Source of the DNA: a virus
Lineage: Duplodnaviria; Heunggongvirae; Uroviricota; Caudoviricetes
Virus record (IMG/VR): IMGVR_UViG_2585427756_000018
Length of the DNA: 6,537 nt
Strand: one strand, 5' to 3'
Shown: piece by piece, positions 955 through 5,771 of the stretch
How the letters are laid out: each line of letters begins with the position of its first letter
Numbering within the stretch: the stretch's first letter is position 1
Made by a program: the position numbers and the translations under genes
The notes under the pieces: model-generated
What the model saw: the letters and a program-made list of their open reading frames with translations, nothing else
Told to the model about the DNA's origin: nothing
Databases searched by the model: none

Positions 955-1464
955 TTATTCAGTTGTTGCTCTGATATATTCATCGAGTAAATCCGGTAAT
1001 TTATCCCCCGCCCGCGCACACTGATTTGCCCCCTTCGCAATAAGGGTTTTCAGATGGTCAAGATGGCGCGGTGTTAAATCAGGAAACTGTCGCTGCATGG
1101 ATAAAGGGATGGAATCAAGCGTACTGGATAACGCCATTGCCAGCTTGCTGAGAGCAAAAATACAGAACCCGGTATCAATAAGTTTTCCTTTTGACACCTC
1201 ATTTTTTAACTGCTGTGTAACAGCCTGTTCTGCTGTCAGTTCCCATCTGGCAATAAGCAATTTCTCCTCATAGTCGTCTTCGCTATCACCATCAGGCACA
1301 TCGTTTTTACTTCTTCTCAGATACGATATGTAAAAATCGCGCCAGGCATCCAGATCCAGTTGCCCTCGCTTATTCGATATCGGGGCACCCGGCAATTTCT
1401 GCAATCTGCGAAGCTGGCGATCGGTCAGACTTAAATGCCTGGCAACTTCAGTCTGCGTAGCCAC
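955..1464 (-). CDS. nu1: Terminase small subunit, lambda Nu1-like
   Basis: ORF-track 169 aa. C-terminal half (FCIFALSKLAMALSSTLDSIPLSMQRQFPDLTPRHLDHLK...LLDEYI) aligns with lambda Nu1 from memory; N-terminus (TQTEVARHLSLTDRQLRRLQ) is HTH-like. GTG start at 1464-1462 with GAGG about 6 nt upstream and an in-frame TGA just before it. Sits between cos and the large subunit as in lambda. Confidence 0.85.
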   Translation of the reverse strand: MATQTEVARHLSLTDRQLRRLQKLPGAPISNKRGQLDLDAWRDFYISYLRRSKNDVPDGDSEDDYEEKLLIARWELTAEQAVTQQLKNEVSKGKLIDTGFCIFALSKLAMALSSTLDSIPLSMQRQFPDLTPRHLDHLKTLIAKGANQCARAGDKLPDLLDEYIRATTE

Positions 1465-2422: not shown

Positions 2423-2749
2423 TCAGGGACGTGACGGCGTAAAGATAAATTGTCTCTTCACTCCCTGACAGGGGCGATTCTTTTCAAATCGCCATTTCGC
2501 CATGGCCTTCACCACTTCATCACGAAACAAATTATGAGGCTCTGAGCGGAGAAAAACGATCCGTGTCACAGTCCCATCAGCACCAATATCGAACTTAACC
2601 TCAACCAGCCCCTTGATATAATTTGCTGCAGCATATTCCGGATATCGTGGATACACCGTCACTAATTGCCGGGGCTCATCAGCTTTTTGCTGTGAGCATC
2701 CCACTGCCAGGACAGATAACAGAAAAAGTAGTAAAAGGCGTCTTTTCAT
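2423..2749 (-). CDS. Lipoprotein consisting of a TonB C-terminal-like domain (108 aa)
   Basis: ATG at 2749 with AGGA 6 nt upstream. MKRRLLLLFLLSVLAVGC has a signal peptide and lipobox-like AVGC. The rest (YPRYPEYAAANYIKGLVEVKFDIGADGTVTRIVFLRSEPHNLFRDEVVKAMAKWRFE) matches the TonB C-terminal domain pattern (compare E. coli TonB ...[44 protein letters not shown], from memory). The ORF track 126-aa version starts further upstream without an SD. Confidence 0.8.
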   Translation of the reverse strand: MKRRLLLLFLLSVLAVGCSQQKADEPRQLVTVYPRYPEYAAANYIKGLVEVKFDIGADGTVTRIVFLRSEPHNLFRDEVVKAMAKWRFEKNRPCQGVKRQFIFTPSRP

Positions 2750-3059
2750 TTTTATTCCTACGGGTCTTATTCTGACAATATATCCTGTGTTCCAGACTGC
2801 CACATCACCACATCCTGTGCCATTATCTGACTCACATTACATACATCGCATCGGGATACAGTAGTAGCACTTTCTGTAATACAGCTTCCTGTTTCTTCCA
2901 CCATCGCACCGGGATAAACCCGCGAATCATTAACGCGGTAAAAACCCGGTGTGCATCGTTTTTAATTATCCCCGCACACTCGCGCAGAGGAGTCTCCCTG
3001 TCGGGCTGCGGTCTCTGTTAATGAGGGAATATAGCGACGATACGGCGCATCAACAAAAC

Positions 3060-3518
3060 TTATTTCAGGCACTGAGTGCGGATATAGTCCTGTGCCCCTT
3101 CCAGTTGCTTGTGCATCGTCATCAGCCGCTCTCTGAGGGTGAAATAATCCCGTGTAACGGTGTCTGCCAGTTGGGGGCCGGTTGCATTATCCACGCCGGA
3201 GGTGGTGGGGGCTTCACGCACGGAGCCTGGACAGGTGGCGTTGATCCGCAGGCGCTTACGACCAGCGGCAACGTCAGCGCGAAGAGTTTCATTTTCAGCT
3301 CTCGCATCGGCTAATTCCCTCGAGTATTTTGCATCGAGCGCAGCAACATCGCGCTGGCGCACCTGCATATCAGTAATGGTTGCGTTCGCCAGCTTCAGTT
3401 CACTGGCTTTGTTATCGCGCTGCGCTTTGTAGGTAATCGCGTTATCACGGTAATGGTCTGTTGCCATCCACAGCGCACCACAGGCCACCAGCAGAATAAC
3501 GATAAACGCGGAAAGCAT
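3060..3518 (-). CDS. Rz: Rz inner-membrane spanin (i-spanin)
   Basis: [35 protein letters not shown]...[28 protein letters not shown] parallels lambda Rz from memory. N-terminal TM segment, then coiled-coil-like region. ATG at 3518 preferred over the ORF-track GTG at 3533. Confidence 0.9.
3122..3307 (-). CDS. Rz1: Rz1 outer-membrane lipoprotein spanin (o-spanin), embedded in Rz in the +1 frame
   Basis: [61 protein letters not shown]: lipobox VSAC, proline-rich mature part, very close to lambda Rz1 (…[14 protein letters not shown]…GIISPSERG). Entirely inside Rz, as is characteristic. Confidence 0.9.
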
Positions 3519-3529
3519 TCGGTTTATGT

Positions 3530-3661
3530 TCACCCCAGCAACCCCGACGAAGACAACATCATCCAGGCCATGGAAAGAAAAAGAGCAACCAGCATTAGTG
3601 AAAATGAAATGCCGACAATTACACAGAGGATCTTCGCCAGCGTTATGAGTTTGTCTGACAT
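3530..3661 (-). CDS. Hypothetical small membrane protein, 43 aa, single predicted TM helix
   Basis: ATG at 3661-3659 with strong SD GGGAGGA about 6 nt upstream. [43 protein letters not shown]. Its TGA stop (3532-3530) overlaps the GTG/ATG region of Rz. The ORF-track 73-aa form has no SD at its start. Confidence 0.5.
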
Positions 3662-4014: not shown

Positions 4015-4548
4015 TTATCTGTCGATACCCCAGCACGCCAGCGCGCTCTCCTGGTCACGACGGGATACCTGACCGTAACAGTTGTTTGAACGAATACGGC
4101 AGTCTCTGCCACCGTCCTTAATCCACCAGCGAATCGCTTCGCAGGCACCTTTTCGATCACCAGCATTAATTCGTCTGTAAAACGTCGACGGGAAACACTT
4201 ACCGGGACCAATGTTGTACGGACAGAATGACGCGATCCCCGCTTTCTGGGGTTCGGTCAGCGGCACTCTGATGTTTTTCTCCACCCACGCCAGCGCTTTA
4301 TCACGCTCAATGGCGTTAACCTGGTCGCATTTTTCCTTCGACAACTTCATGCCCGGAACGACAGGTTTGCCATCCACCATGATGGCACCACGGCAGATGG
4401 TCCAGATACCTGCACCATCACGGTATGCTGTGGTGTGGTTGCCTTCCTTTTCATCCAGAAACTGGTCGAGAATGTCAGGCGCAGGCGCACCAGCGGCAAT
4501 CAGCGCCAGAACGGCAGCCGACAGGCCGTATTTGATTTTGGTGTTCAT
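4015..4548 (-). CDS. R: SAR endolysin (T4-lysozyme-like, phage 21 R21 type)
   Basis: 177 aa. N-terminal Gly/Ala-rich weakly hydrophobic signal-anchor-release segment (KYGLSAAVLALIAAGA). E-x8-D-x5-T catalytic spacing in DEKEGNHTTAYRDGAGIWTICRG, as in T4 lysozyme and R21. RINAGDRKGACEAIRWW resembles R21 INQGDIKGACDQLRRW, from memory. Confidence 0.9.
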   Translation of the reverse strand: MNTKIKYGLSAAVLALIAAGAPAPDILDQFLDEKEGNHTTAYRDGAGIWTICRGAIMVDGKPVVPGMKLSKEKCDQVNAIERDKALAWVEKNIRVPLTEPQKAGIASFCPYNIGPGKCFPSTFYRRINAGDRKGACEAIRWWIKDGGRDCRIRSNNCYGQVSRRDQESALACWGIDR

Positions 4549-4584
4549 GGATATATTAAATATTCAGCCGCTGTCCCTGGCCCA

Positions 4585-5475
4585 CTAAATACGCACTTTA
4601 AGATAAGTCAGCCCCGGATGAAGCCAGTAAGCCGGCACTTTTTTAAAGGGTGGAGTATTAAAATCACGAAGAAGAGCCTCCCGCACAATTGCATCCTTAT
4701 CAGCACCACTGGCCAGCGCTTCAATCTCAGCGGCTACCTGAAGATATCCCATGCAACGGCCAACGCGCTTCATCAGCCCCTGCTTTTTATTGTTCTTCAG
4801 GTAATCAATGGCAAATTCAATGAGCTCCTCACTGTGCTGGTGCGATGGAGGTGTTACTTTCCCATTTTCTGAGATGGTTATTTTCCCAGCATCACCGGAT
4901 ACAACAAAGGATGGCCGGTTACACTCCCATTCCAGCTCACTGAAATTATCATTATGAATACTGAAACACTCTGCGAGATTTCTGCTCATCACTTTCCGAC
5001 AATAATCGTCAAACGCAGCAAACTGCTTTTCATCGCCAGAAGGCACCAATATCGACCATTTCTTATTCAGCTCAACGACGTAGCTCTCCAGTTTTTCAAT
5101 ACGTGATTCAACATCATCTTTTTCTGACCGCAGTGTTGACGGCGGCATCTTCAGAGAACAAGTAATTCTTCCCGGTAGCTTTCCTTTGTAGGTTATCAAC
5201 ACATCCTGCGCCTCTAAAATTACGGGGCGCTTTTCCGGCAACGGTTCGTTCCATTCACATAACCCGGCAGCAACATCCATGAAAAACTGCTTCGCCTGCT
5301 TTTTCGCCTCAGCTTCGTAAAACTCCAGCGTGGCACCTTCAGTACGGTCAAGACTAATCGCCACATCTGGCAACAACAGCGACGCTTGCCCGTCACCTTC
5401 CGGCTTCACAGTAACAGTAACCTTATCCCCGTAATTATTTATCCCCTTAACAACCAGTTCATATTTTTTATTCAT
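4585..5475 (-). CDS. Hypothetical 296-aa protein inserted between pinholin and endolysin; family not recognised
   Basis: Uninterrupted ORF (track 4585..5478 uses GTG; ATG at 5475 preferred). SD GGGGAGAG lies inside the last codons of the pinholin gene, 7 nt before the ATG. Predicted soluble (no long hydrophobic stretch), with a probable coiled-coil stretch (DDVESRIEKLESYVVELNKKW). Hand-counted GC is about 40-42% on two 60-nt samples versus about 57-58% in terminase and endolysin samples. Confidence 0.8.
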   Translation of the reverse strand: MNKKYELVVKGINNYGDKVTVTVKPEGDGQASLLLPDVAISLDRTEGATLEFYEAEAKKQAKQFFMDVAAGLCEWNEPLPEKRPVILEAQDVLITYKGKLPGRITCSLKMPPSTLRSEKDDVESRIEKLESYVVELNKKWSILVPSGDEKQFAAFDDYCRKVMSRNLAECFSIHNDNFSELEWECNRPSFVVSGDAGKITISENGKVTPPSHQHSEELIEFAIDYLKNNKKQGLMKRVGRCMGYLQVAAEIEALASGADKDAIVREALLRDFNTPPFKKVPAYWLHPGLTYLKVRI

Positions 5476-5479
5476 CACT

Positions 5480-5695
5480 TTACTCTCCCCGCGCCGCCTT
5501 ACGCCGGTCCTCTTTGATTTTGAAATACAGGTTAGTCAGGTACGTCAGCAGCCCAAACAGCAGACTCCCCAGCACGCCTATTGCCGCCCACTGAGACGGG
5601 GAAACCCTGTCCAGCAACTGCAGGAACCAGTAGCCCGTTCCCACCGCTGACGTGGTGTATGACACACCTGTTGTGATTTTTTCCATCTGGTACAT
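5480..5695 (-). CDS. S: Class II holin (pinholin), phage 21 S21 family, dual-start 71/68 aa
   Basis: [71 protein letters not shown] is near-identical in pattern to S21 (…[26 protein letters not shown]…[20 protein letters not shown], from memory). Two TM segments, the first SAR-like. Two in-frame ATGs at 5695 and 5686; GGGAGA lies 6 nt upstream of the first. The ORF-track 89-aa form starts upstream without an SD. Confidence 0.9.
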
Positions 5696-5736
5696 ACCCC
5701 GTCTCCCGTTATCCGGAAGCTCACAACAATATAAAG

Positions 5737-5758
5737 ACCACCGGCACACACCGATGGT
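5737..5758 (-). terminator. Candidate hairpin with U-rich tail between the truncated upstream gene and the pinholin
   Basis: Minus-strand RNA ACCAUCGG-UGUGUG-CCGGUGGU forms an 8-bp stem with one G-U pair, followed by CUUUAUAUUGUUGUG. It lies in the 76-nt gap between the upstream stop (5772) and the pinholin start. Function is speculative (attenuator, terminator or RNA stabiliser). Confidence 0.3.
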
Positions 5759-5771
5759 CCCTTGCGCAGGC

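Follow-up and report, generated by a model that had tools for sequence, protein, structure and literature searches.

A long, two-domain YdfR/DUF1327 family protein encoded as optional cargo between the holin and endolysin genes of a lambdoid prophage

The DNA analysed here, a stretch of 6,537 nucleotides (nt) from IMG/VR virus record IMGVR_UViG_2585427756_000018 (hereafter the window), contains a portion of a lambdoid prophage with its late genes on the minus strand. Between the holin gene S and the endolysin gene R lies an open reading frame (ORF) of 296 codons, which we refer to as long ydfR. There is very little doubt that it encodes a member of the YdfR/DUF1327 family, that the protein is a two-domain long form of this family, and that the gene is carried as optional cargo. 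The gene family, its position between S and R and the long form are already catalogued in Pfam, PHROGs and NCBI. What goes beyond these databases is the C-terminal domain of the long form, which comprises ~110 amino acids (aa), is conserved, and is without family or fold match. The comparison with Salmonella, by which K-12 YdfR looks like a truncated relic, is new as well. As the family is catalogued and very common in E. coli, we consider the interest of the gene to be modest.

An earlier note, made from the sequence without database searches, had described the gene as unrecognised and could not place it in any family. This no longer holds. Residues 1-100 match DUF1327 (PF07041; 136.9 bits against a cut-off of 25 bits, E 2.7e-40, profile positions 1-88 of 93), and the whole protein aligns with PHROG 1085, a family of unknown function (residues 1-296 on profile positions 1-296 of 296, E 1.5e-189). 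By BLASTP, E. coli K-12 YdfR, the founding member, is 46% identical over residues 1-74 (E 7e-21), and NCBI names the homologues of 296 aa 'YdfR family protein'. A search of NCBIfam with the protein gave no match. The genomic position points to the same family, as the gene order essQ-ydfR-rrrQ in the K-12 Qin prophage places ydfR in the slot that is taken here by long ydfR between S and R. ATCC 25922 and numerous further strains contain copies with 100% identity over all 891 nt. Among 5426 complete E. coli genomes, some match was obtained in 2703, and a copy with a gene coverage of 80% or more in 496. Relatives of the protein were detected by tblastn in 106 phage records, only three of which reach a coverage of at least 80%. 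A HMMER search over 1.84 billion representative proteins returned only 111 relatives, and a scan of species-representative genomes only three loci, all in Escherichia or Shigella.

The domain architecture (Table 1) was derived from a second AlphaFold model, for which Salmonella sequences were included in the alignment. A first model, based on E. coli sequences only, was unusable, with a mean predicted local distance difference test score (pLDDT) of 50.9. The protein consists of a DUF1327 core, a linker, the first part of which still falls within the DUF1327 model match, a predicted helical hairpin or coiled coil, and a basic C-terminal domain. In an alignment of the E. coli relatives, the hairpin region is the site of length variation, with an insertion of ~33 aa in some alleles; known alleles encode 103, 114, 183, 211, 268, 287, 296, 305 or 325-333 aa. 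Hairpin and C-terminal domain also occur alone, as genes of 185-213 aa in other prophages. The protein is soluble and has a coiled-coil-like stretch, as the earlier note had proposed: the highest Kyte-Doolittle mean over 19 residues is 0.75, the grand average of hydropathy (GRAVY) is -0.39, and the hairpin is predicted at residues 118-176. Hydropathy analysis revealed no transmembrane segment, signal-anchor-release (SAR) segment or signal peptide in the 296-aa protein. Two internal segments that had been thought similar do not form a repeat, since p ~0.01 was reached for hand-picked windows only and a comparison of the two protein halves gave p = 0.21.

The C-terminal domain has an isoelectric point (pI) of 9.2, and eleven of its residues (L226, G239, R240, L245, Q246, A248, P276, K278, W284, P287 and Y291) are invariant across Escherichia and Salmonella. 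The ratio of non-synonymous to synonymous substitution rates (dN/dS) ranges from 0.16 to 0.57 along the gene, with values of 0.16-0.21 in the C-terminal domain and of ~0.5 in the N-terminal domain between close alleles. The low ratio in the C-terminal domain, together with its conservation in Salmonella, argues that the long form is a real and constrained protein. A Pfam search at E <= 5 with this domain and the Salmonella homologues returned only noise, except for a sub-threshold DUF1327 match on the Salmonella protein P0146. A fold search gave no match for the C-terminal domain, and a sequence profile search against the PDB returned nothing below E 0.05.

The RefSeq annotation of ATCC 25922 and LC-1302-2020, produced by the Prokaryotic Genome Annotation Pipeline (PGAP), lists a pseudogene of 336 nt at this locus, with the labels 'YdfR family protein' and 'missing C-terminus'. 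The pipeline leaves ~555 nt of constrained coding sequence unannotated (4585-5139 in the window, 6001-6555 in L001 and 7549-8139 in L016). An intact ORF is thus mis-annotated in RefSeq, which hides the conserved 184-residue C-terminal part of the protein.

The status of the gene as optional cargo is evident from related phages. Matches to the S-R region, mostly with an identity of 90-95%, occur in 368 phage records, of which we surveyed an evenly spaced sample of 60. In 37 of these 60, S and R are adjacent (VT2-Sakai, EDL933-Stx, P27 and others), ten carry a short ydfR of the BP-4795 type (114 aa) and four carry longer inserts; in nine, the region is interrupted by an insertion sequence (IS) or only partly matched. 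The share of empty slots among the sampled records with this S and R is thus ~60%. In the empty-slot phages VT2-Sakai, EDL933-Stx and P27, S and R are 90-95% identical to the genes here and lie 4 nt apart. The suggestion that the insert is variable cargo is borne out by these aligned cassettes, in which the slot is empty or filled by the short ydfR of BP-4795 or by long forms. Since the slot is vacant in many phages that share this S and R, lysis does not require the gene, and a lysis-essential role is excluded.

A comparison of six filled cassettes and one empty cassette revealed a constant junction, composed of the 3' end of S with GGGGAGAG, the stop codon TAA, 3-5 nt and an ATG. The gene that follows is R, short ydfR, long ydfR, or a 213-aa gene encoding the C-terminal part only. 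The GGGGAGAG element is also found in front of R in VT2-Sakai, of ydfR in BP-4795 and K-12, and of a gene for the C-terminal module alone in record L006. Long ydfR has thus taken over the S-coupled ribosome-binding site, as suspected earlier, and in empty cassettes GGGGAGAG is the Shine-Dalgarno sequence of R. The S-R junction is therefore a well-defined swap site, at which one Shine-Dalgarno sequence embedded in S serves whichever gene follows. As a convenient natural system, it lends itself to studies of how a tightly coupled lysis cassette can take up cargo and still function. Alignment with VT2-Sakai, BP-4795 and K-12 (MAFFT) places approximate breakpoints near 5472 and 4531, so that the extra module carries long ydfR, the spacer with the R leader and the first ~six codons of R. 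R begins with MNTKIKYGL in filled cassettes and with MSRKLRYGL where it abuts S. The loose likeness of this R start to the first residues of long YdfR (MNKKYEL), which had been read as a possible recombination scar, is explained by chance (p = 0.33). Flanking direct repeats were considered as a mark of insertion and rejected, as only chance matches of 17 nt at 82% identity were found. In some phages a small gene on the opposite strand lies between the ydfR-type gene and R (L005 3161-3421, L006 3177-3491); it is labelled 'DUF1823 containing protein' in one record. The slot is thus able to hold more than one cargo gene.

Long ydfR has an intact frame on the minus strand, from an ATG at 5475-5473 to a TAG at 4587-4585, with an in-frame GTG one codon upstream of the ATG and 4 nt between the stop codon of S and the ATG. 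The reported 891-nt ORF between S and R was confirmed, as was its Shine-Dalgarno sequence within the last S codons. Regarding base composition, the reported drop in GC content relative to the flanks is real, with 46.1% in the ORF, 55.4% in S, 54.3% in R and a window mean of 49.9%. The gap is 8-9 percentage points and not the 15-17 that had been estimated. A sigma-70 consensus scan, which is not decisive, found no promoter-like site on the coding strand. The sole terminator-like hairpin that a consensus scan detected near the 3' end of the ORF (4626..4609) is weak, has 7 pairs and lies inside the ORF.

These features invite a comparison with the lambdoid morons of the late operon, of which bor, lom and stx, the last between Q and S, are named examples. 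Like them, long ydfR is optional cargo near the lysis genes and deviates in base composition. Classical morons carry their own promoter and terminator. In contrast, neither was detected for long ydfR by the consensus scan, with the caveat given above, and its translation is coupled to S.

The next gene, R, starts 36 nt past the stop codon of long ydfR, and the A/T-rich leader read there contains no Shine-Dalgarno sequence, in agreement with the earlier note. The note had further proposed that translation of R may now depend on reinitiation, which we consider unlikely. This leader, which lacks a Shine-Dalgarno sequence (..ATAAATATCCATG), is found 5' of R in all filled cassettes examined. The end of the upstream ORF varies among them: it overlaps the R start (-4 nt, K-12), lies 36-50 nt before it, or lies ~320-450 nt before it with an opposite-strand gene between. 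A leader that is common to all these distances leaves the dependence on reinitiation unsupported. No special RNA structure was found at the start of R; the predicted fold leaves the R AUG unpaired and is of ordinary stability (z = 0.14).

Among the HMMER relatives are two-domain proteins of Salmonella enterica with 25-33% overall identity. Their N-terminal domain represents a diverged form of DUF1327 (hhalign probability 91.7%, E 7.6e-7), and their C-terminal domain is 43% identical over 98 aa. Two of them, P0236 (305 aa) and P0146 (266 aa), are recorded as 'hypothetical proteins' and have no Pfam domain recorded. The Salmonella genes share with long ydfR the N- and C-terminal domains, the late strand and a place beside the lysis cassette. 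They differ in lying between the antiterminator gene Q and the holin gene instead of between S and R, which overlap there, and in having toxin-antitoxin genes as neighbours, either ParE with a helix-turn-helix (HTH) protein or HicA/HicB (L011 2136-2838, L013 3127-3781). This location indicates that the family is tied to the hotspot from Q to the lysis genes and not to the S-R junction as such. The shared two-domain architecture suggests that the long form is complete and probably ancestral, and that the 103-aa YdfR of K-12 is a truncated relic. If so, the sole experimental work to date concerned a truncated relic.

Table 1. Features of the window and of long ydfR
Feature	Position	Strand	Details
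IS3-family element	5972 to window end (6537)		first feature in the direction of transcription; within the 5' end of the DUF826 gene
S, S21-type class II holin (pinholin), 71 aa	5480..5695	minus	PF04971 E 6.8e-33; phrog_9876 and phrog_20 (both holin); RefSeq class II holin
Shine-Dalgarno sequence GGGGAGAG	5483..5490	minus	overlaps the last S codons; ends 7 nt before the long ydfR ATG
Extra segment relative to cassettes with adjacent S and R	4531..5472 (approximate breakpoints)	minus	MAFFT with VT2-Sakai, BP-4795 and K-12
Long ydfR gene	4585..5475	minus	296 aa, 33 kDa, soluble
DUF1327 core, aa 1-72	5260..5475	minus	three strands and a long helix, pLDDT 68-90
Linker, aa 73-117, mildly basic, pI 8.8	5125..5259	minus	pLDDT 28-41 (below 50 throughout aa 73-120), no confident structure
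Helical hairpin/coiled coil (predicted), aa 118-176	4948..5124	minus	helices 118-146 and 149-176, pLDDT 51-66
C-terminal domain, aa 185-296, basic	4588..4923	minus	three strands and four helices, pLDDT 81-95
Spacer and A/T-rich R leader, 36 nt	4549..4584	minus	no Shine-Dalgarno sequence; read from the sequence
R, SAR-type endolysin, 177 aa, RrrQ-like	4015..4548	minus	PF00959 E 2.4e-24; phrog_7 endolysin; E-8-D-5-T motif
Small hydrophobic ORF between R and Rz, 60 aa	3676..3858	minus	PHROG 1115, function unknown
Small membrane-like peptide ORF between R and Rz, 43 aa	3530..3661	minus	GRAVY 1.67; own GGGAGGA Shine-Dalgarno sequence
Rz, i-spanin	3060..3533	minus	PF03245 E 2e-47
Rz1, o-spanin, embedded in Rz	3122..3307	minus	lipobox LVVSAC
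Lipoprotein gene with TonB C-terminal domain	2423..2803	minus	downstream of Rz
Small terminase subunit	955..1464		followed by the start of the large subunit, end of the series

The closest experimentally studied relative is K-12 YdfR (b1555, P76160; Qin cryptic prophage). Like long ydfR, its gene follows a Shine-Dalgarno sequence embedded in S and precedes a lysozyme gene of the RrrQ type, and both proteins belong to DUF1327. K-12 YdfR, however, has only 103 aa and lacks the linker, the hairpin and the C-terminal domain. Residues 75-103 form an unrelated tail, encoded across the R leader, and the stop codon overlaps the rrrQ ATG as a result. The short YdfR of Stx phages (BP-4795 ORF47, 114 aa) is ~85% identical over residues 1-112 and occupies the same slot, flanked by the same two genes S and R. 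The protein stops after the linker, without hairpin and C-terminal domain, and the stop codon of its gene lies 50 nt before R. The long alleles of 268-333 aa and the C-terminal-module genes of 185-213 aa in E. coli prophages are built from the same modules in the same slot, and differ by insertions or deletions in the hairpin region or by absence of the DUF1327 domain. One such allele, Stx2_95 BCI50300 (329 aa), is 77.5% identical to the protein over its full length (tblastn).

Experimental data exist for K-12 YdfR as the only family member, in a report of 2026 (PMC13232886); a search of the literature on ydfR or DUF1327 found nothing functional beyond it. In that study, K-12 YdfR was found to interact with residues 1-597 of RNase E (Rne 1-597) in a bacterial two-hybrid screen and to co-purify with the same fragment in a pull-down, with the contact surface inside residues 1-72. 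RNA (DNase-resistant nucleic acid) also co-purified with K-12 YdfR (PMC13232886). In favour of carrying this lead over to long YdfR are the 46% identity in the contact region and the pI of 9.2 of the C-terminal domain. The explanation that we find best overall, and to which we would give an even chance, is that long YdfR is optional late-operon cargo in an S-R slot of the Qin/BP-4795 type, with a role that can be derived from this lead. The more specific proposal, made by analogy with K-12 YdfR, is of a late cytoplasmic protein whose N-terminal domain docks on RNase E and/or RNA and whose C-terminal domain adds a second activity. We put it forward tentatively, as a possibility well short of an even chance. 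Long YdfR would be made in the cytoplasm during late transcription, alongside the lysis proteins. Its N-terminal domain would dock on RNase E, at the catalytic half, and/or on RNA, as reported for K-12 YdfR, while the hairpin may oligomerise the protein and the C-terminal domain may supply a second binding activity. Long YdfR would then modulate RNA decay or processing late in infection, and would not act on the envelope.

Should the YdfR lead hold, long YdfR would resemble T4 Srd, phiKZ Dip and T7 gp0.7, which are likewise phage proteins acting on the main RNA-decay enzyme of the host. These three are proteins of virulent phages and are made early, and Srd acts on the N-terminal half of RNase E. 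We found no sequence or fold similarity between long YdfR and Srd, Dip or gp0.7. Srd is cited in PMC13232886 and PMC7430671. Dip is described in PMC4980113 as a ligand of RNA-binding segments in the degradosome scaffold rather than of the catalytic half. It is conceivable, albeit doubtful, that the long form stands for something wider, namely a late protein of temperate phages that combines an RNase E/RNA-binding N-terminal domain with an oligomerising hairpin and the C-terminal domain. Either such proteins would constitute a new class of modulators through which prophages influence RNA decay in the host, or the Q-S-R hotspot would encode a defence or counter-defence effector not described before.

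Several observations weigh against a role in RNA decay. Overproduction of K-12 YdfR barely changed the transcriptome, did not affect growth and was not toxic, and the authors could not exclude a contaminant as the carrier of the RNA (PMC13232886). The data on RNase E and RNA are limited to the 103-aa K-12 protein and to one study, identity to this protein in the RNase E-binding region is only 46%, and no evidence ties the C-terminal domain to RNA. The position of the Salmonella gene, beside toxin-antitoxin pairs in the Q-to-holin hotspot, fits a benefit to the lysogen or a defence function equally well. Finally, an IS3-family element lies between the cassette and Q/pR', cutting the one off from the other in this strain, which makes expression of long ydfR uncertain here.

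The first alternative is that long ydfR is cargo that benefits the lysogen, such as a defence, superinfection-exclusion or abortive-infection factor in the Q-S-R hotspot, whose variable modules reflect an arms race. This is possible, though rather unlikely. It would account for the variable presence and shuffled modules of the gene, its GC content below that of the flanks, the N-terminal dN/dS between close alleles, and the ParE/HTH and HicAB pairs beside the Q-to-holin homologues in Salmonella. Induction of the K-12 cluster by cold stress has also been reported (PMC13232886). A match to known defence systems, which the earlier note proposed to look for, was however not obtained: no PADLOC-DB v2 model fits the protein at E <= 0.01, nor eight of its homologues even at E <= 1. 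The consensus scan showed no promoter-like site on the coding strand, and with a start coupled to S, the gene should be expressed along with the late operon. The lack of toxicity on overproduction of K-12 YdfR (PMC13232886) likewise speaks against such a factor.

Less probable again is a regulator of lysis, that is, a soluble factor that tunes pinholin triggering or release of the SAR endolysin and so sets the timing of lysis. In favour of this, long ydfR is located within the lysis cassette and translationally coupled to S. The Salmonella homologues also adjoin the lysis cassette, and a genetic screen cited in PMC13232886 tied ydfR to envelope integrity. On the other hand, numerous phages have this S and R without any gene in the slot. 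The Salmonella gene is located upstream of the holin gene, with other genes between them, and S and R overlap there. Moreover, the protein is soluble and without membrane segment, unlike antiholins and the releasin of phage Mu, which have one.

A reading of long ydfR as a decaying pseudogene or as the product of an accidental fusion, implied by the RefSeq label, is very improbable and already contradicted by the evidence. PGAP does restrict its annotation to a partial pseudogene formed by the first 336 nt, and the C-terminal part is a separate gene in other prophages. However, many genomes share the identical, open frame of 296 codons, the C-terminal domain has a low dN/dS, the two-domain order is kept in Salmonella, and further alleles of 296 aa are intact YdfR family proteins by NCBI's own naming. 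The remaining probability falls to functions not yet imagined.

The cassette around long ydfR is of the phage 21 type, with a dual-start holin of the S21 family, a SAR lysozyme and Rz with embedded Rz1. The two starts of S are M1 and M4 (MYQMEK), and the SAR-type N-terminus of R, taken from the translation, reads YGLSAAVLALIAAGAPAP. A terminator-like hairpin of 13 bp with a T-rich tail (5733-5762, minus strand) occupies part of the intergenic region between DUF826 and S, immediately upstream of the start of S.

The IS3-family element was inserted ~15 codons into the DUF826 gene directly upstream of S, and the same prophage region is found without it in other genomes; the ATCC 25922 prophage, for one, has no such element. 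Its orfA is located at 6026..6352. The ALIL frameshift pseudoknot of the element (6307..6423, 120 bits) was the sole match in an Rfam scan.

With the two small hydrophobic ORFs between R and Rz, both labelled hypothetical protein in RefSeq, the cassette is interrupted at a second place. These small membrane peptides could act as lysis modulators. Further downstream, the lipoprotein encoded after Rz is assigned to PHROG 1267, 'Rz-like spanin', whereas only TonB_C is found in Pfam and NCBIfam; the PHROG label is probably wrong. Its gene occupies a position where cargo genes are common, and a TonB_C gene is present at the equivalent place in Logan contig L015.

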